From an uncultured delta proteobacterium (GTDB lineage: Bacteria > Desulfobacterota > WTBG01 > CAIYCZ01 > CAIRTM01), in NCBI GenBank assembly GCA_963804955.1, contig CAWDSQ010000035.1, forward strand, positions 27,373 to 91,372: a stretch of 64,000 nucleotides of DNA. The letters are read 5' to 3'. A program made the translations under genes and the position numbers. Shown here piece after piece: positions 24,576 to 35,943 of the stretch; within the stretch, counting starts at the first letter, position 1; every line of letters starts with the position of its first letter. A model generated the notes under the pieces. It saw only the letters and a program-made list of their open reading frames with translations, was not told the DNA's origin and searched no databases.

Positions 24576-26495
24576 TTACCGCTGAAGAAGCCTGCCCCGC
24601 TTCCAGGAAGAAGACAAGCGCTGTGCCTCGGCAATTTGCTGACCGTTCATATCTTTTTTAAGCTTGTTTTGAAAGGTGCGATAGCGGGCTTCACCCGGGT
24701 CCTGAGCCGCTGCCACGTTCAGCCATGCGCAAGCTATAACTAAATCCTGCGGCACCCCCGCACCCAAAACATAGAGCCTCCCAAGGTTGCACTGCGCATC
24801 AGCATGCCCCTGGGCAGCGGCCTTCTGATACCACTCGGCAGCTCTATCCATGTCCTTCGGGACTCCATCGCCCTGGTCATAAATAACCCCAAGATTATAC
24901 TGAGCTGCAGCATTACCCTGTGCTGCTGACTTCTGACACCACTCGATTGCCTTGTTCATATTTTTAGGAACACCATTGCCGCTTGCATAAGAAAAGCCAA
25001 GGGTAGCCTGTGCTCCTGCATGCCCCTGCTCCGCCGCTTGCTGATACCACCCGATTGCTTTGACCATGTCCTTCGGGACTCCATCGCCCTTCGCATAAAT
25101 AAGCCCCAGGTTATACTGTGCAGTAGCGTTTTTCTGTGCTGCTGCTGTATGCCACAGGTCAACTGCTTTGCTCATATCTTTAGGCACACCCTTGCCTGTC
25201 GCATAGGCAAATCCGAGTTCAACCCGCGCTTTGGCATTTCCCTGGTCAATGGCTTTTTGATACCATGCAACAGCTTTTTGCAGGTCTTTAGGTATACCGT
25301 CACCATTGGCATAGCTGAGCGCCAGAAAAAATTGAGCGGCAGCGTTTCCCTGATCAGCAGCTTTTTGATACCATGCAGCAGCCTTTTGCGTATTCTTGGG
25401 AATACCGTCACCATTGGCATACCTGATCCCAAGCAAATAGTGCGCGCCAGCGTTTCCCTGGTCAGCCGCCTTTTGCCAGCACTCAACAGCCTTTTTCATA
25501 TTAAGAGGAGCACCACTGCCAGTGGCATAACAAAGCCCGAGAGAAAATTGAGCATCAGCGTTTCCTCGCAAAGCTGCAAACTGGTACCACTCGACAGCCT
25601 TTTGCATGTTTTTGGCTACACCGTTACCCGTCGCATAGCAGAGGGCAAGGAAATATTGCGCATCGGCGCTGCCCAGCTCAGCTGCTCTCTGATACCAGTT
25701 CACAGCCTTTTTCATATCCAGAGGAACACCTTCCCCCAGATTATACTTGAACCCAAGCTTAAATTGCGCACGGGCTTCTCCTTGTTCTGCTGCCTTCTGA
25801 TACCAGTACAGTGCTTTCTCCATGTCTTTCGGGACGCCATCACCCTGATCATAGAGTAAACCAAGTTGAAACTGCGAAGGGACATATCCCCGCTCTGCTG
25901 CCTTTTGCGATGCTTCAAATAGTTTTTGCCACCACGCATAGCTTGCTTTGGAAGCATCGACGTCCAGATTATTATGCATGAGCCAAAATTTTAACTGTGC
26001 ACGGGCAGCTTCCTGCTCAGCGGCCTTTTGATACCACTCAACAGCCCTGTTCATATCTTCCGGGACACCTTCTGGAATCTCATTGCGGAGATCAAGAAGA
26101 AATTTTGCGGCAGCGTTTCCCTGCGCAGCTGCTTTTTGTACCCATTCAATGGCCTTATTTTTATCTTCGGGAACACCGTCACCTTTAAGGTAACAGGCTC
26201 CAAGGGAATATTGCGCAGCAGCGTTTCCCTGCTCTGCCGCTTTTTGATACCACTCGGCAGCCTTTTTGATATCTTTTGGGGCGCCATCTCCATTTTCATA
26301 GATGACACCTGTTCTGTATTGTGCATCGGCATTGCCCGCAGCAGCCAGCTTGTGGATCCTGGTAAATTCTTTTGTTTCAGCAGCTTGTGTAGAGTCTTTT
26401 TTTTCTGCGGGATAGGAACGGTTGGCGAACCCGAAGGATATAAGCATGAAAAGGGATATGCCTAAAAAAAATTTCAGGGAAATTCGAAGCGGCAT
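24576..26495 (-). CDS. Secreted Sel1-like repeat protein (about 15 repeats)
   Basis: 36-aa units GDGVPKDxxKAxxWYQKAAEQGxAxAQ; signal peptide. Confidence 0.95.
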   Translation of the reverse strand: MPLRISLKFFLGISLFMLISFGFANRSYPAEKKDSTQAAETKEFTRIHKLAAAGNADAQYRTGVIYENGDGAPKDIKKAAEWYQKAAEQGNAAAQYSLGACYLKGDGVPEDKNKAIEWVQKAAAQGNAAAKFLLDLRNEIPEGVPEDMNRAVEWYQKAAEQEAARAQLKFWLMHNNLDVDASKASYAWWQKLFEASQKAAERGYVPSQFQLGLLYDQGDGVPKDMEKALYWYQKAAEQGEARAQFKLGFKYNLGEGVPLDMKKAVNWYQRAAELGSADAQYFLALCYATGNGVAKNMQKAVEWYQFAALRGNADAQFSLGLCYATGSGAPLNMKKAVECWQKAADQGNAGAHYLLGIRYANGDGIPKNTQKAAAWYQKAADQGNAAAQFFLALSYANGDGIPKDLQKAVAWYQKAIDQGNAKARVELGFAYATGKGVPKDMSKAVDLWHTAAAQKNATAQYNLGLIYAKGDGVPKDMVKAIGWYQQAAEQGHAGAQATLGFSYASGNGVPKNMNKAIEWCQKSAAQGNAAAQYNLGVIYDQGDGVPKDMDRAAEWYQKAAAQGHADAQCNLGRLYVLGAGVPQDLVIACAWLNVAAAQDPGEARYRTFQNKLKKDMNGQQIAEAQRLSSSWKRGRLLQR

Positions 26496-27194
26496 TACGA
26501 TCTCCTTAATGGAAAACGGCACGAACTATATTCTGCGATTCTTGACCTAATGGATGCGCTATCAACCCGATAGATTTTTATGGGGTGCTGCTCACACGCT
26601 TTCCGCCACACGGGTCTTGCTGTAGACCCTCCCTTTTTTATCTCCGCCCATTGCCCGATTGGTACTATCCATGGCTGAGGTTGCAGGCACATGCGAGCCG
26701 CACAGGGGATTTTTGTTGGTTCATAAATGAGATACATATTACATGCCTTCGCCATCTGTGCATGTGCCGATACAAAATATTCATTTCTCTGCGGAGGGCA
26801 ATTCGTACTATGCTCAGCAGGGGGAAATACTGCTTCACACAAATCTTCTTCTATGATAATTTTTATATTATTTTAAAACAAAAGAAACAAGTGTTTTATA
26901 GCGAAGCGGTTTGCACGAACAGAACTATAACCTGCCACCAGGCCTTTTTTCTTCTCCTGCTGCGCCGATTGAGAGCTCCTTTCTGGCGGGGCAGTGATTG
27001 CTGGTGTCGCAGATGGTGATATGTTAACCGTCATGCATCAAGGCTCGGATAAGCAGAGAAGGCTGTAGTTGTTGCTGGTTGCCCCGAGAAAAATTATCCA
27101 TGTGTCAACGGTTTGTGCGCATCATCCTGGCCGGTGAGCCTGCCGGATTTCATGCTGTGAATGCTGCGGCAGGGCTCTGGGTACGATCAAAGCT

Positions 27195-27656
27195 ATGAAA
27201 ACAATTTTAGTTATATATCATTCCCAGGGAGGCACTACGGAGTGTATGGCGCGGGCTGTAGCCGATGGTGCGGCCGGGATGGAAGGGGCCTGCGCTCTTC
27301 TGAAGCGGGCCGTCGAGGCATCCCTTGATGATCTTTTGAGCTGCGACGGCCTTGTGATCGGCTCGCCTGAGTACTTCGGCTATATGGCAGGAGCTGTGAA
27401 GGATTTTTTTGACAGAACCTATGAAGCGGGGCATACAGGGAGAAGGTCTTTTCGTAAGCCGTATGCCGTTTTTATTCATGCAGGCAATGACGGCACCGGC
27501 GCCCTTGCCAGCATCGAGCGCATCTGCCGCGGGTATACATTTAAAAAAGTATATGAACCCCTTATTGCCTGCGGCGACGTGACGGACAGTGTGCTGGCGC
27601 GGTGTGTAGAGATGGGGCAAACCATCGCGGCAGGCTGTGTTGAGGGGATTTATTAA
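27195..27656 (+). CDS. Flavodoxin-fold (WrbA-like) protein
   Basis: YHSQGGTTECMA, GSPEYFGYMAG.VKDFFDR, HAGNDGTGA. Confidence 0.88.
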   Translation: MKTILVIYHSQGGTTECMARAVADGAAGMEGACALLKRAVEASLDDLLSCDGLVIGSPEYFGYMAGAVKDFFDRTYEAGHTGRRSFRKPYAVFIHAGNDGTGALASIERICRGYTFKKVYEPLIACGDVTDSVLARCVEMGQTIAAGCVEGIY

Positions 27657-27858
27657 GCAGTGGGAAACATGAAATCAGAGCTTGCATGTGTTTTGCTGGC
27701 ACGCATCGCTATATATTTACGCTATGCCCTGAACGCGGACAGGCTCAGCAGTTCTTCGCGGGATGATTTTTTCAAGGCGGTAAAAAAAGCGCAGATCGGC
27801 GCTGCACGTTTAACCGGCCTGTATAAACGCAAATAAGTTATTCAAAACGGGGAGAGAC

Positions 27859-28263
27859 ATGGAACACATTTCAGATCCTGTAGCCTATGCGCGCGATGTG
27901 GTCGGCGGCGACCCCATGGCAACATTTCTCGGGGTGCATATCGATGAAGTGCGGCAGGGCTATGCCCGCTGCTCGCTTTTAGTAAAGCCTGAATATTTGA
28001 ATGCCGCTGATCGGGCCCATGGGGTGACGGTCTGCGCCGTTGCAGACCAGGCTTTTGCCGTCGCCTGCAACTCTCTTGGTACAAAAGCCCTCGCGGTGAG
28101 CCTTAAGCTTACCTATACGGCTGCTGCGCCTCCGGGTGATATTATCGTTGCCGAGGCAACGCCGGTCAATGTGGGCCGCAAGGTAAGCGTCTGGAAGATC
28201 GAGGTGCGCGGCAGGGAAAATGGCCTGATTGCCTCCTGCGAAGGAATTGCCTATCATAAATGA
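27859..28263 (+). CDS. PaaI family hotdog-fold thioesterase
   Basis: LNAADRAHG..ADQAFAVACNS. Confidence 0.88.
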   Translation: MEHISDPVAYARDVVGGDPMATFLGVHIDEVRQGYARCSLLVKPEYLNAADRAHGVTVCAVADQAFAVACNSLGTKALAVSLKLTYTAAAPPGDIIVAEATPVNVGRKVSVWKIEVRGRENGLIASCEGIAYHK

Positions 28264-28282
28264 ATGCTGCGGGAGAGCGCTC

Positions 28283-28681
28283 ATGCTGAAGAAAAAGAGC
28301 AAGGGCATGATCGAGGCCGAGATCAGCGAGGCCATGATCAAGTTTGAAAAAGAGTATATGGGCCGCGGGCCACTGGAGACAAAAACCTATATTGTTGAAG
28401 ATATGGTCATCGTGCGGCTTACCAAAGTGCTGACCCGTGCAGAAGAGCAGCTCACCAGAACAGCCGAAGGTCTGGCGCTCATAAAAAAGGTACGGGTGAC
28501 GCTGCTTGAAGAGGCCCGTCACCTTCTTGAGGCCATAATCAAGGATATCGCCGACAGTCAGGTGCTGAGCATGCACACGGATATCAGCACGACAACCGGT
28601 GAGAGGGTTATCATTTTCGTTCTTGACCGTAACCTTGAGGAGGTGTTAAAAAAATCTATTGAAAAACAGAAAGTGTTATGA
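28283..28681 (+). CDS. DUF2294 / MpsC family protein
   Basis: KGMIEAEISEAMIKFEKEYMGRGP..LTRAEEQL..SMHTDISTTTGERVIIFVL. Confidence 0.88.
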   Translation: MLKKKSKGMIEAEISEAMIKFEKEYMGRGPLETKTYIVEDMVIVRLTKVLTRAEEQLTRTAEGLALIKKVRVTLLEEARHLLEAIIKDIADSQVLSMHTDISTTTGERVIIFVLDRNLEEVLKKSIEKQKVL

Positions 28682-28689
28682 GATAATAC

Positions 28690-28850
28690 AAGAAGATTGG
28701 AAGATTGTGTTAAATACCTGAGGCATGACACGGGGCGTTCGCGGGCAAAAACCGGCGAAATCCCTTGAGCCGATAAGGTGGTTAATAAATAAGCCAATAT
28801 CAGACAAGCCCTCTCAATGCGGGCCCGCTGATATTGGCTTTTTGTTTTTT
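28690..28850 (+). promoter_or_regulatory. Structured leader / transcription attenuator upstream of the PEPCK-like gene
   Basis: Three small hairpins, then a 13-bp terminator stem (28791-28803 with 28828-28840) plus T-tract ending at the GGAGG RBS (28851). Confidence 0.65.
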
Positions 28851-28860
28851 GGAGGTGTTT

Positions 28861-30628
28861 ATGGATAGAGCTAAATTCATGATTTTTTGCCCGTAAGGTG
28901 ATCATCTATACCAGGGGCAAGGTATGCGAAACGCCGGAAGAGTTGCTGTCAAGCCCGTTGTTTACAGAACTGCTGCGCCGGTATTTTGATGAGCTTGCCG
29001 AAAAGCAGTCCTACCTTATAAAGGTGCTTGGCGACAGGCCGGCCGATGCCGAAACGATCAGCCTGCTTGTGGAAACACTGCGGCATCTTGCAAAGCTGCC
29101 GTATACAAAAGTACCCAGCGTGGTGCCGGGCGCCGAGGTGTTTTTTCGTGACATGGCCCTGATCAGCGAGTTTATCGAGCAGCTTTATAACTACTGGCGC
29201 AGCCATGACCGGTTTCTGCTGTGCGATTCCGAAGGCGACATTCTTGACCAGCGCCCCTACAGGACGTTCAATTTTTCCATAGAAACGCTTACGCATCTGA
29301 TCCGGAGCGTCTACCGCGACATCCAGGAGAATATCACGCTGTCGCATCCGCGCATTTACCGTCAGGTCACGGCGGGAGCTGAAATAGCAGCCATATCCCT
29401 GCCGCAGAAGCTGCAGCTGCCAGGGGGTGTCTATGAGAAGCTTTATAAGATACCGGTCATCAGGCAGGTTCTTATCAATCCGCCCCTTATTTTGAACCCG
29501 CCCATGAACAAGCGGACCGGGCAGTTCGTGAAGGTGGAGCGCAACCCGCTTGAGTTAGTGGAGTTTCATCAGGATGAATGGCTCTGCTATCCGGCCAAGG
29601 TCGGACCGCTGTTGATACTGGTGTATTTTCACGCCCGTTTTTTTGAGCTTGGGTTTACCCTGTGCAATCTGTTCGAGCTTGCTGAAGATGAGGATTTGAA
29701 CAGGCCACCCGATGCTGTCTATGCCTTCGGCGCGCCAGCCGGCAGCCTTGACGGGCTTGGCGTTTTCCCGACGGTTTTCCATGAAGATGCTGAACATGAT
29801 TTGCTTGTTGCAGCAGCGCCCTGTGATGATGCTTTCGGCTATTTTGGCTATCTTAAAAAAATGGTGCTCACGCTGCACAATATCAAGATGATGCAGGCCG
29901 GAAAACTGCCATTTCACGGCGCATTTGTCAAAATGCTCCTGAACGATTACGGAGAGAAAAATATCCTGATCATCGGCGACACGGGCGCGGGCAAGTCCGA
30001 GACACTGGAGGCCCTCAGAACCCTGGGTGAAGGCCGCATCAAAGGCATGTTTATCATTGCCGACGATATGGGCTCCCTTGATATTGATGAAGAAGGCCGC
30101 ATCATCGGCTATGGAACCGAGACAGGCGCTTTTCTGCGCCTTGATGACCTGCAGGCCGGCTATGCCTTTGGACAGATCGACCGTTCCATTATCATGAGCC
30201 CCAGCCAGGTGAATGCCCGGATCGTGCTGCCCGTCACGACCTATGCTATGGTCATGCAGGGCCACAGGGTCGATGTGGTGCTGTATGCCAACAACTATGA
30301 GCAGGTTGACGATGAGCATCCGGTCATCGAGCGGTTTACCTCTGTTGATCAGGCTTTCAGCGTTTTTCGCGAAGGCACGGTCATGAGCAAGGGCACAACT
30401 ACCTCGAGCGGTATTGTGCACTCTTATTTTGCCAATATTTTCGGGCCTGCACAGTACCGGCAGGTACATGACCGGCTTGCCACGATATTTTTTAACGCTT
30501 TTTTCAGCAAAGACGTTTTTGTCGGTCAGATGCGCACACGCCTGGGCATTGCGGGATATGAAACCGATGGGCCTGCCCAGGCTGCCGAAGAATTGCTTGA
30601 GAGACTACAGCAGGCAACGAATAAGTAG
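28861..30628 (+). CDS. Atypical phosphoenolpyruvate carboxykinase-like P-loop protein (indel in T-run ~28885)
   Basis: YFGYLKK, LPFHGA, Walker A GDTGAGKSET, IIADDMG; GGAGG then ATG at 28861, long frame resumes by 28898. Confidence 0.75.
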
Positions 30629-30772
30629 AAGCCTCAAGAAGGGTAGTGCTATGCGCTGTATTGTGTTTGCTAATTATATTATTAGTACCGCCAAGCAAGC
30701 GGCTGGTTTTTTCTTGCGGCGCGCACTTGCGGATTCATAAATTTACATAGGAACTATAAGTAGTTATATATA

Positions 30773-30802
30773 TTGACAGGGGAATGCTTCGTGTGCTATA
30801 AA
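30773..30802 (+). promoter_or_regulatory. Sigma70-type promoter of the por operon
   Basis: TTGACA-18 bp-TATAAA with extended TG. Confidence 0.6.
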
Positions 30803-30859
30803 TTCTCCTCTTAAATTAGAAAATGAGTGGGGTTTTGAAAATATACAGGAGGACACGGT

Positions 30860-31411
30860 ATGCTTGAAGTTCGCTTACATGGAAGAGGCGGGCAGGGATC
30901 AGTCACGTCTGCCGAGCTGTTTGCCGAAGCGGCAATCGGCGAGGGCAAGTACGCCCAGGCTTTCCCCAGCTTCGGTCCCGAGCGCCGCGGCGCGCCGGTG
31001 CGGGCCTTTATCCGCATCGACGACAAAGCCATTCAGCTGCGCAATGAAATTGACGAGCCTGATGTGGTGCTGGTGCTTGATCCCACACTGATTCGGGTGG
31101 TCAATGTGACCGAAGGCTTGAAAAAGGACGGGATTGTCATCTTGAATACCAGCAAGTCCGTTGCTGAGATCAGGAAAGAGTACGGCATCACGGCAAACGT
31201 CGCAACAGTCAATGCCACCAGAATCGCAACCGAAAATCTTGGCCGCCCCATTGCCAATACCACCATGCTGGGCGCCCTGATCAAGGTGACCAATGTTATT
31301 GCCATCGAATCGCTCAAGGAAGCATTCGGGCACCGGTTCGGCAAACTGGGGGAAAAGAATTACAAGTCATGCCAGGCAGCTTTTGGCGAGACGGTAATGG
31401 AGGGACGCTGA
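30860..31411 (+). CDS. porC: Pyruvate/2-oxoacid:ferredoxin oxidoreductase gamma subunit
   Basis: EVRLHGRGGQG, FGPERRGAPV, NTTMLGA. Confidence 0.92.
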   Translation: MLEVRLHGRGGQGSVTSAELFAEAAIGEGKYAQAFPSFGPERRGAPVRAFIRIDDKAIQLRNEIDEPDVVLVLDPTLIRVVNVTEGLKKDGIVILNTSKSVAEIRKEYGITANVATVNATRIATENLGRPIANTTMLGALIKVTNVIAIESLKEAFGHRFGKLGEKNYKSCQAAFGETVMEGR

Positions 31412-31412
31412 C

Positions 31413-31706
31413 ATGGCAAAAAAAGATTTTGAACTGACCTGGAAAGAGATACCTGTCGGCGTCATCGTGCATGAGCCCGGCAATGCAAGCGAATATCAGA
31501 CCGGCGACTGGCGCTCGCAGATGCCCGTGCTGGACAGGGCAAAATGCGTAAAGTGCGGCATTTGCTACCGCTTCTGCCCCGAGCCCTGCATCGTCAAAGA
31601 CGACGAAGGCTATTATGTGGCGGATCTGTTCTACTGCAAGGGCTGCGGCATCTGCGCCTATGAATGCCCCAAGGATGCAATAACCATCGTGAAGGAGGAA
31701 CATTAA
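31413..31706 (+). CDS. porD: Pyruvate/2-oxoacid:ferredoxin oxidoreductase delta subunit
   Basis: TGDWRS, CVKCGICYRFCP and CKGCGICAYECP. Confidence 0.92.
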   Translation: MAKKDFELTWKEIPVGVIVHEPGNASEYQTGDWRSQMPVLDRAKCVKCGICYRFCPEPCIVKDDEGYYVADLFYCKGCGICAYECPKDAITIVKEEH

Positions 31707-32883
31707 TGGCAAAACGAGTCGGAGCAGAAGGATCGTTTGCAGTTGCCGAGGCTGTTCGTCTTGCCGATACGGATGTTGTGGCAGCCTATCCCATAACACC
31801 TCAGACCCATATCGTCGAGCGCCTCTCCGAAATGGTGGCCGACGGCGACCTTAATGCAAACTTTATTTATGTTGAATCCGAGCATTCGGCCATGAGCGCC
31901 TGTCTGGGCTCTGCGGCTGTTGGCGCCCGCACCTTTACCTCCACGGCAGGCCAGGGCCTTGAGCTGATGCATGAGGTGCTCTATCTTGCCTCATCCATGC
32001 GCCTGCCGATTGTTATGGCGGTTGCCGACCGTGCGCTGTCGGGCCCCCTGAATGTCTGGGGCGACCATTCAGACGCCATGGCAACCCGCGAATGCGGCTG
32101 GATTCAGTATTTCGGCGAAAACGCCCAGGAGGTGTTTGACCTGACCCTGTGCGCCTTTAAAATAGCCGAGCATCATGATGTGCTCTTCCCGGTCATGGTG
32201 CATATGGACGGTTTCCATGTCTCGCATGTGGTTGAGCCCTATTTGCTGCCTGACAAAGAAGAGCTCGGAGACTTTTTGCCCCCGATCGACTATCCCTATC
32301 CGCTTGACCCCAATAAGCCGGTAACCATGGGCGCTTTTGCCCCGCCGGCGGTCTATTCCGAGTGCCGCAAGGCCCAGGATGTGGCTGTCAACAGCACCCA
32401 TCGGCACCATCGAGAACGTGTGGAACGAATTCGGCAAGCGGTTCGGCCGGCAGTACAAGCCGATTGAGACCTATAAGACCGAAGATGCCGAAACCATTCT
32501 GGTTTCTATCGGCAGCTTCAACCAGATGGCAGCGGTAGCAGTCGATAAGCTGCGCGTCAGAAGGCAAAAAGGTCGGCCTTGTCCGGATTCGCCTGTGGAG
32601 GCCTTTTCCGCTGCAGGCATTCCGCCAGGCAGTAAAGTCAGCCAAAAACGTTGTCGTTTTTGAGCGCTCCATGACCTATGGCGGCACGGTGGGCCCGGTC
32701 TGCGCCGAGGTAAAATCGGCGCTGTACGGCATCAAGGGCGCCCCGCGCGTCATGGATTTCATCGGCGGCCTGGGCGGCAGAGACATGAGCCCGAAGCAGT
32801 TTGAGGCTCTCTTCAAGCGCGCTCAGGAAATATTCGACAAAAACCTTGATATTCAATATGAAACGATTGGAGTGAGAGAATGA
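31706..32883 (+). CDS. porA: Pyruvate/2-oxoacid:ferredoxin oxidoreductase alpha subunit (frameshifted)
   Basis: AAYPITPQTHIVE, ESEHSAMS, GDHSD, GGLGGRD. Confidence 0.92.
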
Positions 32884-33810
32884 GCACATTTAAATACACT
32901 TCAAAAACTTAGAAGCGCCGGGGAACTGTTCATGCCCGGCCATCGCGCCTGCATCGGCTGCGGCGAAGTGCTTGCCATGCGCCAGGTCTGCAAGGCCCTG
33001 GGCAAAGACATTATCATCGCTAATGCCACGGGCTGCATGGAAATCATTTCATCGCCGTTTCCCACGACCAACTGGGACGTGCCCTGGATTCACGCGCTGT
33101 TTGAAAACACCGCTGCAGTGGCCTCGGGCGTTGAGTCGGGCCTGGATGCCATGAAGCGCAAGGGCAGGGGCCCTGCGCAGGACGTGACGGTTGTTGCCAT
33201 GGGCGGCGACGGCTCAACGTTTGACATCGGCCTGCAGTCGCTTTCAGGCGCCCTTGAGCGCGGGCATAATTTCATCTATGTCTGCTTTGACAATGAAGGC
33301 TACATGAACACGGGCATTCAGCGCTCCTCGGCCACGCCCTTCGGCGCCTCGACCACGACATCGCCGGTCGGCAAAAACAGCATCGGCCAGACAACGCAGA
33401 AAAAGGATATGCCCCTCATAGCCCTTGCCCATCATATACCCTATATTGCCACCTGTACGCCGGCCCATCCGACGGACCTTGCCAAGAAGATCAAAAAGGC
33501 AAAGGAGATCAAGGGCCCGGCATATATTCATGTGTTCAGCCCCTGCCCCACGGGCTGGGGAACGGACTCTGATGTGGCCATCGAGCTGTGCCGGCTGGCT
33601 GTTGATACGGGTGTTTTTCCCCTGGGCGAGTGCGTGTACGGCACCTACGCGCTCACGAAGCACATCAAGGAGCTCAAGCCTATCCGCGATTATATGAAGC
33701 TGCAGCGCCGGTTCCGCCATCTTTCCGATGATGTGATCGATCAGATTCAGGCGCAGGTGCGTGAGCATTATGAAATTGTCAAGTCCAAGTGCGGCGTGGC
33801 AAGTAATTGA
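32880..33810 (+). CDS. porB: Pyruvate/2-oxoacid:ferredoxin oxidoreductase beta subunit (frameshift near start)
   Basis: GHRACIGCG, TPP motif GGDG..DNEGYMNTG, SPCPTGW. Confidence 0.92.
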
Positions 33811-33970: not shown

Positions 33971-34994
33971 ATGAACGACGACAATCTGCGAAAAGGGCCA
34001 TGGCAGGGCCAGCAGCCGCCCGATATCGCGGAGTTTTTAAAAAAGCTCCGCGAAGGACTGCCGGGGGCCGGTATTATCGGCGGCCTGATCCTGATCGCTT
34101 TCATCGCCCTGACCTGCTGCTACAGCATACAGGCCGGCGAGGTGGGAGTCGTGCAGCGCTTCGGGAAGTTCGTGCGCCTATGCAACTCCGGGACTTAACT
34201 TCAAAATGCCTGCGGGCATTGAGAGCGTCATGCGTGTGCCCGACCAGTATATCGCCACGGAAGAATTCGGCATGCGCACCGTGAACCCCGGCGTGCGCAC
34301 CCAGTATGCCCCGGAAAAGCAGTTCGTCGACGAGGCGCTTATGCTCACGGGCGACCTTAACTGCGCCCTGGTGCCCTGGATCGTGCAGTACCGTATCAGC
34401 GACCCCTATAAGTATGTTTTCAAGGTGCGCAACCGGCAGCTCATGCTGCGCGACTTTTCCGAGGCTGTTATGCGGCAGATCGTCGGGGACCGCAGCATCA
34501 ACGAGGTGATCACCGAACGGCTCGAGATAGCAACCGAGGCAAAGCGCCAGCTGCAGGCATCACTTGATGCTGCCGAGACGGGCATTCAGGTGGTGAACCT
34601 GGAGCTGAAAAACACAACCGTGCCGGAGCCGGTGCAGCCATCGTTTAACGAGGTCAACCAGTCCGTTCAGGAAAAGGAGAAAATGATCTATCAGGCCCGC
34701 GAGGCCTACAATAAGATCATCCCCGAGTCAAGCGGCGAGGCCGAGCGCGCCATCAAGGATGCCGAGGGCTATGCCCTTGAGCGCATCAACCGCGCCACCG
34801 GCGATGCCAACAGGTTTTCCTTTCTGCTCAATGAGTATATCAAGGCAAAAGACGTGACGCGCCGCAGGCTCTATCTTGAGGCCATGGGCGCGGTGCTCCC
34901 GAAGCTCGGCAGCAAATATATTATCGATCCGGAGCAGAAAAGCCTTCTGCCGTTTCTGAATCTGAATGAAAAAGCCGGGGAGAAGAAGCCATGA
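33971..34994 (+). CDS. hflK: FtsH protease modulator HflK (frameshifted)
   Basis: GVVQRFGK, MLTGDLN, VQPSFNEV, TRRRLYLE. Confidence 0.92.
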
Positions 34995-35943
34995 TGAAGC
35001 GTTATGCAGGAATTATCGCAGCACTGGTGCTCGGCTTTTTTATCTTCGGGCAGCCGTTCTACACGGTTAACGAGACCGAGCAGGTCATTATCACGCAATT
35101 CGGCAAGCCTGTCGGTGATGCCGTGACCGATGCGGGGCTGCATTTCAAGGTCCCGTTTATTCAAACGGTCAACAGCTTCCCTAAAAACCTGCTTGAGTGG
35201 GACAGCGATCCCGGCCAGATTCCCACGCAGGATAAAACGTTTATCTGGGTTTCCGCATTTGCCCGGTGGCGCATAAAAGACCCTCTGGCTTTCTACAAGG
35301 CCGTAAACAATGAACGGGCGGCGCAGAAAAAGCTTGATGACATTCTTGACGCGGCGACATATAATTTCGTGACCTCGCATCATCTGATCGAGATCGTCCG
35401 GAGCTCAAACCGGCTGATGAAGGCTGAAAACATAGTTACGGTCGGGCTTCCCGACAAGGCCGCCGAGCAGCTGCAGATAAAGGTGGGCCGGGAGGAAATG
35501 GCGCGTCTCATTCTTGAGCAGGCATCACCCGAAGCTCGTGCAGTTCGGCATCGAGCTTGTTGATTTTCGCATCAAGCGCATCAACTATGTTGAGGAAGTG
35601 CTCAAGAAAGGTCTATGAGCGCATGATTGCCGAGCGCAATCAGATATCGGAAAAGTTCCGCTCCGAGGGCAAGGGCGAGAGCAAGAAGATACAGGGCGAT
35701 CAGGAGAAGGAGCTGCGCCGGATTCAGTCCGAGGCGTACCGAAAAGTTGAAGAGATCAAGGGTAAGGCCGACGGCGAGGCTACGCGCATCTGCGCCGAGG
35801 CTTTCGGCCGCGACCCCGAGTTTTATTCATTTGTCATGACGCTGGATATTTATCGCAATGCGCTCAACGCCGATACCAATGCGATACTGAGCACGAACAG
35901 CGATTTTTTTAAATACTTTAAAGAATATAAACCGTCAAATTAA
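34991..35943 (+). CDS. hflC: FtsH protease modulator HflC (frameshifted)
   Basis: [36 protein letters not shown]. Confidence 0.92.

Follow-up and report, generated by a model that had tools for sequence, protein, structure and literature searches.

Why should an intrinsic terminator stand directly in front of the ribosome-binding site (RBS) of the gene it precedes? The question is raised by a stretch of 64,000 nucleotides (nt) from an uncultured delta proteobacterium (GenBank assembly GCA_963804955.1, contig CAWDSQ010000035.1, positions 27,373 to 91,372 of the forward strand), here called the window, in which a small DUF2294/MpsC gene is followed by a structured spacer and then by a gene whose product is predicted to have the fold of phosphoenolpyruvate carboxykinase (PEPCK). 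The spacer specifies an RNA element that can form either a hairpin or a terminator, two folds that are mutually exclusive, and the same element accompanies DUF2294 genes in three phyla. We are confident that it is a conserved, DUF2294-linked terminator switch. That the switch is OFF by default and that the DUF2294 protein serves as its antiterminator is the reading we favour, with a probability of roughly 0.55, and inorganic carbon is put forward tentatively as the signal. A preliminary description of the locus had already proposed attenuation or antitermination; the conserved leader and its mutually exclusive hairpin and terminator bear this out, but RNA binding by DUF2294 finds no support in the predicted fold of that protein. 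The parts of the locus, in window coordinates, are:

28283..28681, + strand: DUF2294/MpsC gene, coding for a stand-alone, single-domain protein of 132 amino acids (aa), the proposed trans-acting factor

28659..28687, + strand: promoter-like site (TTGAAA, 17 nt, (TG)GATAAT), with 10 of 12 consensus matches, overlapping the DUF2294 stop codon (28679-28681)

28694..28850, + strand: leader RNA element, long form (putative antiterminator hairpin plus terminator), found with covariance model R2

28697..28797, + strand: putative antiterminator hairpin with an extended distal part, from the minimum-energy fold of the nascent RNA

28791..28850, + strand: intrinsic terminator, a 13-base-pair (bp) stem (28791-28803 with 28828-28840) and a T-tract (28839-28850)

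28851..28863, + strand: RBS GGAGG (28851-28855) and start codon ATG (28861-28863), from the sequence and the N-termini of homologues

28861..30628, + strand: PEPCK-fold P-loop gene, about 588 aa, with an extra T in the run 28883-28888; the listed open reading frame (ORF) is 28898-30628

The spacer between the two genes (28682-28860) is 179 nt long, close to the 180 nt first reported, and folds more stably than shuffled sequence (z -3.42; 1 of 200 shuffles was equally good). The element begins 13 nt past the DUF2294 stop codon. In the nascent leader, taken to position 28827, the minimum-energy fold (-41.7 kcal/mol) contains a basal helix P1 (28697-28700 with 28794-28797, UUGG/CCAA), an internal loop with AAG (28701-28703) opposite AAG (28791-28793), and a helix P2 (28704-28706 with 28788-28790). 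Positions 28791-28797, with the sequence AAGCCAAUAUCAG, are shared: they form the 3' strand of P1 and the internal loop, and also belong to the 5' arm of the terminator, the T-tract of which (T5 G T6) is followed directly by GGAGG, so that the terminator does abut the RBS as originally described. The terminator alone has a folding energy of -26.8 kcal/mol. In the complete leader the terminator state reaches -55.9 kcal/mol, against -46.8 kcal/mol when P1 is forced, and this advantage of about 9 kcal/mol makes termination right before the RBS the default. A loop of more than 8 nt caused the window hairpin to be missed by a simple terminator scan.

The terminator position had been taken to mean that transcription from upstream must read through it. 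A consensus scan found no promoter-like site between the hairpin and the start codon, a location that the preliminary description had singled out, and to this extent read-through holds; but the promoter-like site at 28659-28687 means that the leader may also have a transcription start of its own, besides being read through from upstream. This site at the end of the DUF2294 gene is also present in the closely related loci L001 and L002. Promoter-like sites number six in 4.5 kb, which is not above the shuffled expectation (4.0 +/- 2.2), and a promoter before the element is not general, with 7 of 52 copies reaching at least 9/12 consensus matches versus 3.75% of shuffles. Leader-peptide attenuation was considered as well and is unlikely, as an ATG-initiated frame of the long-form leader is not kept in the short forms (judged by eye). 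None of the 4227 models of Rfam 15 matched at E<=1 in window positions 26000-32000 or in 12 other element-bearing loci.

Eighty genome loci encoding the PEPCK-fold family (L001-L080) were collected, and eight of them (L001-L004, L006, L021, L040 and L041) carry a DUF2294 homologue upstream on the same strand (tblastn, E<=1e-3); the 72 counted as lacking one include eight that have less than 600 nt of upstream DNA and are not judgeable. Common to the window and all eight DUF2294 loci is a motif in which GGAAGA(Y) and a hairpin that varies are followed by (R)GUAAGCC, then by a variable stem and GGCUUUUUU. It is in place behind DUF2294 also in loci where another gene (L003), a further promoter region (L021) or a repeat of the motif in tandem (L040) comes between it and the PEPCK-fold gene. 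One architecture is found in all 10 copies first detected beside DUF2294 and in the roughly 45 copies known later (folded without the 3' arm of the terminator; the fold table covers 38 of 45). It consists of a basal helix P1 of 2-4 bp, YGG/CCR (GG/CC plus a flanking pair), and a symmetric purine loop AAG/AAG, which in copies with C as the first letter of the loop is replaced by a third G-C pair and an AG/AR loop. Above these lie P2, more purine loops of 2x2 size and a distal hairpin (P3) whose length varies. In every copy folded, the 5' arm of the terminator is formed by the 3' strand of the loop and P1 (AAGCC...).

Covariation was examined in alignment A5, for which 24 short-form copies taken from three phyla were aligned with MAFFT alone and no structure was fitted; the window copy, a long form, is excluded. 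Two other MAFFT alignments in which long and short forms were mixed (A2 and A3) misaligned the 5' anchor and were dropped. Within A5, 82.6% of the cells of hairpin plus P1 are paired, against 21–46% when the partners are slid by 1-3 columns; both sides have changed in 11 of 13 pairs, or in 10 of 10 for the hairpin alone, and 0 of 500 shuffles reach the covariation score. As the sequences are related, the shuffle counts are not probabilities; the slid controls retain the same relatedness, yet their pairing is still far below that of the true partners. The two GG/CC pairs of P1 are invariant and thus carry no covariation information, and the flanking pair is U-A in 10 copies, C-G in 4, U-G in 3 and other in 7. 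When hairpin and terminator are taken together, 88.3% of cells are paired and 18 of 21 pairs have changed on both sides, and the terminator pairs across copies are 95.1% paired. The base of the terminator covaries with the loop letters (AAUCC with GGAUU, AGGCC with GGCCU). Core letters are nearly fixed: G7, G10, C60 and C61 occur in 24/24 copies and G6, A9, G55 and A57 in 23/24.

The 24 sequences of A5 were the seeds of covariance model R2, which superseded R1 (7 seeds). Although built without the window copy, R2 matches 28694-28843 (39.3 bits, E 3e-6), and this is its sole match in the 64-kb window. A conserved leader in other DUF2294 loci had been set beforehand as the test of the proposal. 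DUF2294 loci were picked by PF10057 only, from the window's phylum, Spirochaetota, two further genomes and Bacillota (best 30 loci), PF10057 being present in 11/301, 9/201 and 92/301 genomes of the window's phylum, Spirochaetota and Bacillota, respectively. A full-length R2 match at E<1e-3 lies within the 1.5-kb flanks in 42 of the 53 loci, spread over three phyla. The 50 matches in DUF2294 loci reduce to 49 elements, one being the reverse strand of another. Thirty-four of these are on the same strand and at most 300 nt downstream of DUF2294, and four more are 325-412 nt downstream; the rest lie at most 300 nt upstream (four), further upstream (four), on the other strand (two) or across an ORF call (one). 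Many Bacillota elements begin 2-13 nt after the DUF2294 stop codon and are therefore co-transcribed with it. Where a genome has several DUF2294 paralogues, an element is found beside each (e.g., G637, G606 and G583).

The reverse comparison gives the same picture. In the window plus L001-L080 (739 kb), matches at E<1e-3 are confined to the window and the eight DUF2294-bearing loci; the 72 PEPCK-fold loci without DUF2294 have none at this threshold (best E 0.0094). Among 151 whole Bacillota genomes, apparently a subset of the 301 scanned for PF10057, a match at E<=1e-4 occurs in 16, every one of which has PF10057; of the 19 matches, 15 are within 600 nt of a listed DUF2294 gene. For the window's phylum, matches at E<=1e-6 occur in three genomes, two with DUF2294 (G086 and G049) and one without (G007), against the base rate of 11/301, and five weaker matches (E 5e-4 to 8e-3) in genomes without DUF2294 are at chance level over 151 genomes.

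Some copies are arranged differently. Tandem elements follow a single DUF2294 gene in L040 (3471-3572 and 3730-3831) and in L083 (1229-1321 and 1334-1431, - strand); behind the L083 pair there is also a second DUF2294 paralogue, which is divergent. The copy in G007 (L146, C1:9238-9327, + strand, E 2.9e-8) lies behind a TerC-like membrane gene (by eye). G049 carries a second copy (L152, C142:35774-35860, - strand) far from DUF2294 and followed by small Mrp E/F/G-like membrane ORFs (by eye); this element may be a trans-regulated target.

The DUF2294 protein itself matches Pfam PF10057 (MpsC) with E 4.1e-38 and 130.3 bits (cut-off 23), its residues 7-116 aligning with profile positions 2-111 of 111. 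MpsC is the only Pfam family found at E<=0.01 over its 132 aa, with no CAT, PRD or HutP match, in agreement with the stand-alone gene first described, and PF10057 occurs in a single copy in the window's genome. Longer, fused forms of the family consist of four single-member proteins (a PP2C fusion, a ParA/DRTGG-like fusion and two others), too few to suggest a partner domain. An AlphaFold2 (AF2) model was predicted with high confidence (predicted local distance difference test, pLDDT, 94.7). Foldseek searches of the PDB with this model gave nothing at E<=1e-3, the weak rows being uL23, H-NOX and Bet3/TRAPP, and the best score in a VIA wide search (Z 6.7) was inside the background of the tool (Bet3 5.9, RbfA 5.3, V4R 4.6). 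HutP was not among the rows of these structure searches, in which the fold itself was without a clear match. A PDB sequence search returned no meaningful match, and a homodimer prediction scored 0.23 where the mark of the tool is 0.42, which speaks neither for nor against a dimer.

The Pfam name of PF10057 is taken from the mpsABC operon of Staphylococcus aureus. As had been stated at the outset, mpsA and mpsB are not adjacent to DUF2294 in the window, where the neighbours are (by Pfam) a thioesterase, a flavodoxin-like gene, the PEPCK-fold gene and POR subunits; furthermore, DabA/MpsB (PF10070) was not found in the window's genome, which is 87% complete. According to the part of Fan et al. 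2019 (PMC6689103) considered here, S. aureus mpsC is dispensable for bicarbonate transport by MpsAB and its deletion has no growth phenotype, a weak terminator separates mpsC from mpsAB, and transcription of mpsA is lower at 5% CO2. These data argue against a role as a transporter subunit and would agree with a function in regulation; that part of the paper reports neither a regulatory role nor an RNA element for S. aureus mpsC.

The genes behind the element were surveyed by taking the longest ORF that starts within 330 nt after each of 47 elements and classifying it by Pfam. Seven rows were left out: three already known to belong to the PEPCK-fold family (the window, L001 and L002), the leading copy in each of two tandem pairs, L119, which is nearly identical to L120, and L082, where the ORF is cut at 55 aa. 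Forty-four of the ORFs come from loci chosen by DUF2294, and three (L003, L004 and L021) from loci chosen via the PEPCK-fold gene. In many loci the ORF starts 5-45 nt after the element. The families found are Sbt_1 (bicarbonate transporter superfamily, 3), AIRC/PurE (3), PEPcase_2 (3), DUF4914 (2), and one each of PEPCK_N/GTP, monomeric isocitrate dehydrogenase, a NuoL-like antiporter subunit and a CO dehydrogenase/ACS subunit. The others are MpsC (5, these being DUF2294 genes themselves), GH18 (3), MFS (2), aminotransferase (2), and one each of CitMHS/Na-sulfate symporter, chorismate synthase, Nuo51-like, Fer4, TrkA, HtpX-type peptidase and Usp. The remaining 13 have no family, and tblastn places eight of them in the PEPCK-fold family. 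Altogether, 23 of the 47 encode products that we take to use or move CO2 or bicarbonate (8 PEPCK-fold, 2 DUF4914, 3 PEPcase_2, 1 PEPCK_GTP, 3 Sbt_1, 3 AIRC/PurE, and the isocitrate dehydrogenase, NuoL-like and CO dehydrogenase proteins), an enrichment that agrees with the proposal of inorganic-carbon genes behind the leader. The gene order in L120 is DUF2294, element, NuoL-like gene. The two DUF4914 genes behind an element are at L137:3-1289 (- strand) and L102:2100-3329 (+ strand).

Taken together, the spacer may be pictured as a transcription-attenuation switch that is OFF by default. RNA polymerase would reach the leader by reading through from the DUF2294 gene, start at the promoter-like site that lies at the 3' end of this gene, or do both, and the emerging RNA would form a rod-like hairpin with a very short basal helix beside a purine internal loop. 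Unaided, the terminator would win by about 9 kcal/mol and transcription would halt just before the PEPCK-fold RBS. The DUF2294 protein would bind and hold the basal helix and loop, blocking the terminator, and RNA polymerase would then read into the PEPCK-fold gene. The likely trigger would be the inorganic-carbon (CO2/bicarbonate) or carboxylation status of the cell. Binding of the RNA by DUF2294, the direction of the effect and the signal are steps that we infer. A wider proposal, in which DUF2294/MpsC founds a new family of small RNA-binding antiterminators that sense inorganic carbon and switch a cross-phylum 'inorganic-carbon regulon', is at present doubtful, and the same caution covers the presumed members of this regulon (PEP carboxylase, PEPCK and PEPCK-fold enzymes, PurE, SbtA and NuoL/MpsA-like transporters), which belong to that joint proposal.

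The alternative that survives best, although we consider it rather unlikely, is that the leader is a protein-independent riboswitch, in which a ligand or ion (bicarbonate, a carboxylation metabolite or a cation) stabilises P1, while DUF2294 is merely co-located or co-regulated. A rod-like hairpin that overlaps a terminator is the architecture of ON riboswitches, the downstream genes share a coherent metabolic theme as they do in riboswitch regulons, and the DUF2294 fold carries no hint of RNA binding. Copies away from a listed DUF2294 gene (4 of the 19 Bacillota whole-genome matches and the second copy in G049) and the copy in G007, where no DUF2294 was detected, point the same way. However, such linkage as is seen here is not needed by a ligand riboswitch: a riboswitch requires no adjacent protein gene, yet 16 of 16 element-bearing Bacillota genomes have DUF2294 against a base rate of 92/301, 15 of 19 elements are within 600 nt of it, and 38 of 49 lie downstream of it. 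As DUF2294 is usually upstream of the element, it is not regulated by the element. The RNA also conserves only about 12 letters, has no junction or pseudoknot of the kind usual in metabolite pockets, and matches no Rfam riboswitch model. A gene that is tightly linked, mostly upstream and itself unregulated is the pattern of protein antiterminators and their targets, and the elements beside each paralogue, together with the few copies before DUF2294 genes, fit this pattern too; the genomic linkage thus favours a protein over a riboswitch. The RNA by itself would be compatible with a ligand, since some ion riboswitches share the rod-like hairpin and terminator design.

Accepting a protein partner, DUF2294 could act on the RNA in some manner other than antitermination, by promoting termination, by protecting or processing the transcript or through translation, or the terminated RNA could titrate the protein as a small RNA. 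The genomic linkage is as strong for these roles as for antitermination, some copies form a free-standing unit from promoter to terminator far from the next gene or stand in tandem (L021, L040/L085 and L083), and L109 has no co-oriented gene directly downstream. We nevertheless regard such roles as improbable: the terminator is already the default by 9 kcal/mol, which leaves little for a termination-promoting factor to do, the conserved letters are located exactly in the part that competes with the terminator, and at most loci no more than tens of nt separate the element from the start of the next ORF. Very improbable is an ordinary 3' untranslated region and terminator of the DUF2294 unit, without switching and with DUF2294 as an accessory subunit of an MpsAB-type transporter, for while the element directly follows DUF2294 in most loci and the family owes its Pfam name to the S. 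aureus mpsABC operon, the hairpin before the terminator covaries in 10 of 10 pairs and overlaps the terminator arm in every copy, copies exist upstream of other genes with no preceding DUF2294, the 87%-complete genome has no DabA/MpsB, and mpsC is dispensable for transport in S. aureus (PMC6689103, in the part considered here).

Several observations nevertheless weigh against an antitermination switch operated by DUF2294. The confident model of the protein gives no hint of RNA binding and no clear structural relative, and the isoelectric point of the family is near neutral (median 6.8), which is uninformative. Eleven of the 53 DUF2294 loci lack an element at E<1e-3 (L087, with a weak match at E 0.0095, and L089, L092, L100, L108, L110, L111, L115, L128, L129 and L130), while G007 (91% complete, 560 contigs) has a strong element and no PF10057 match. 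The copy in L109 (1304-1393, + strand) is convergent with DUF2294, on the opposite strand and 102 nt from its 3' end; the only ORF downstream of it is one of 93 aa without a family. One copy of the element is detectable in the window's genome, hence no regulon is visible there; the other weak matches in this genome (C7, C22, C25 and C1) look like plain terminators. R2 is weak on long forms, and in the whole-genome search the window element has E 0.027 (0.016 with R1). For roughly half of the genes behind the element, a connection with inorganic carbon is not apparent (GH18, MFS, HtpX, Usp, TrkA and the aminotransferases), and the target gene is frameshifted in this assembly. Finally, a rod-like hairpin that has small internal loops and overlaps with a terminator is a description that fits some ion riboswitches as well. 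Public RNA runs contain at most 0.12 of the sampled words.

The principle of a hairpin competing with a terminator is known, whereas the RNA described here and its presumed protein partner appear to be new. In the hut operon of Bacillus subtilis, the gene for the small regulator HutP is followed by an intergenic terminator and the regulated genes, and ligand-dependent binding of HutP to the RNA prevents termination. The DUF2294 locus likewise has a small stand-alone gene, then an intergenic terminator and then the target gene, but DUF2294 matches PF10057 only, without a Pfam HutP match, and its linked RNA is a rod-like hairpin with purine internal loops rather than the spaced triplet repeats of hut RNA. 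Antiterminators of the BglG/LicT/SacY/GlcT type hold a weak, imperfect hairpin (the ribonucleic antiterminator, RAT) that overlaps the 5' arm of the terminator, and the gene for the regulator is often directly upstream. Shared with these are the weak hairpin with internal loops overlapping a terminator arm, the regulator genes that are themselves preceded by a copy (here 4/49) and the paralogous protein-RNA pairs within one genome. Unlike them, DUF2294 has neither CAT nor PRD domains and no link to sugars of the phosphotransferase system. The element also differs from RAT in sequence and loop geometry, its hairpin is longer and more variable, and its targets belong to carboxylation and bicarbonate metabolism.

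The Na+ (DUF1646 motif) and Li+ (nhaA-I) classes are terminator-coupled ON riboswitches with rod-like aptamers. Like these, the element is an elongated hairpin with conserved internal loops, the 3' strand of which competes with a terminator, and its downstream genes include ion and bicarbonate transporters; unlike them, it is near-obligately linked to a specific protein gene and has no match in Rfam 15. The S. aureus mpsABC and DabAB systems (PMC6689103, in the part considered here) have the same family PF10057 and the theme of CO2/bicarbonate supply in common with the window, which differs in that it has no adjacent mpsA or mpsB and no DabA was found in the genome. Full-text literature searches on DUF2294, PF10057, MpsC, ybcI and riboswitch/bicarbonate themes, the scope of which excluded subscription journals and supplements, found no description of such a motif.

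If the proposal is true, this would be the first dedicated post-initiation gene switch for CO2/bicarbonate in heterotrophic bacteria. It would assign a function to a widespread domain (PF10057 in 92 of 301 sampled Bacillota genomes) and would add an RNA motif and a probable protein-RNA antitermination pair to HutP, BglG/LicT, ANTAR, PyrR and TRAP. It would offer a handle on the regulation of carboxylation and bicarbonate uptake in non-photosynthetic bacteria, a question left by the work on S. aureus MpsAB (PMC6689103, in the part considered here). The system is compact (a protein of 120-130 aa and an RNA of 90-150 nt), testable in vitro and a possible CO2-responsive genetic part, and it draws attention to a highly conserved family of PEPCK-fold enzymes without a Pfam model as part of the same physiology.

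The gene for the PEPCK-fold protein was listed as an ORF of 576 aa with a GTG start at 28898. This ORF is truncated at its 5' end, because a homologue that is 95% identical (P0001, 588 aa) begins 12 codons further upstream. The N-termini of P0001 and other homologues fit a start at ATG 28861, from which the frame is lost after 11 codons; with one T fewer in the T6 run at 28883-28888, the N-terminus of the homologues is recovered. That T is absent from five of five covering contigs in three public metagenome runs (X1: 1, X2: 3, X4: 1), and the extra T is therefore either an assembly error or a strain-specific frameshift (pseudogene). Two other interrupted genes were seen nearby. A POR alpha-type gene (31664-32467) stops early and is separated by a 460-nt gap from the gene for the thiamine pyrophosphate-binding subunit (32932-33810), and a Band_7/SPFH gene is broken up into two ORFs that overlap (34206-34994 and 34991-35563); these may be further assembly indel errors.

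The name 'PEPCK-like' is right for the predicted fold of this protein but wrong for the sequence families. No Pfam family matches at E<=0.01, PEPCK_ATP (PF01293) and PEPCK_GTP (PF00821) included, NCBIfam gives marginal matches around the P-loop (HPr kinase, E 0.034; PEPCK PRK09344.1-3, E 0.052 and 12.1 bits where the cut-off is 369), and a PDB profile search with the family returned no PEPCK and nothing meaningful. An AF2 model of the family (alignment A1; pLDDT 78.9, predicted template-modelling score 0.80) gave a different result, as all of the best 50 Foldseek rows are PEPCK chains, led by 2pc9_B (E 1.9e-11, template-modelling (TM) scores 0.43/0.49 over 453 columns). In the ESM Atlas structure search, the model has a TM score of 0.58 to the PEPCK_ATP cluster, with DUF4914 clusters also adjacent. 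A DUF4914 fragment is similar around the P-loop (BLASTP E 7e-4; Atlas feature score 0.91), and the PEPCK-fold family and DUF4914 may be distant relatives in one superfamily.

The PEPCK-fold family is large, with at least 3935 proteins at E<=0.001 among 8000 candidates scored (60–95% identity), from Desulfobacterota, Spirochaetota, Bacteroidota, Omnitrophota, Planctomycetota, Bacillota and others; some of the homologues carry the NCBI name 'phosphoenolpyruvate carboxykinase'. It is encoded by 565 of 597 pattern matches in species-representative genomes, and the family alignment has an invariant P-loop (G-x-G-x-GKS) and invariant KK, H and DD columns. The window's genome also encodes a canonical GTP-PEPCK (E 5.4e-175); ATP-PEPCK was not found in it.

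Upstream of the PEPCK-fold gene in a number of Bacteroidales loci (L019, L023-L029 and others), which have neither DUF2294 nor the element, there is an A/T-rich motif ending in (T)ATTTTTG(C), about 30-70 nt before the start codon, that resembles the Bacteroidetes -7 promoter type (by eye). In the window, the stop codon of the PEPCK-fold gene is followed by a terminator-like hairpin (30643-30659) and, by eye, a second GC-rich stem with a T-run (about 30690-30715), and with these hairpins at 30640-30715 the gene looks monocistronic. The POR operon that follows, from 30860, has its own promoter-like site at 30835-30864.

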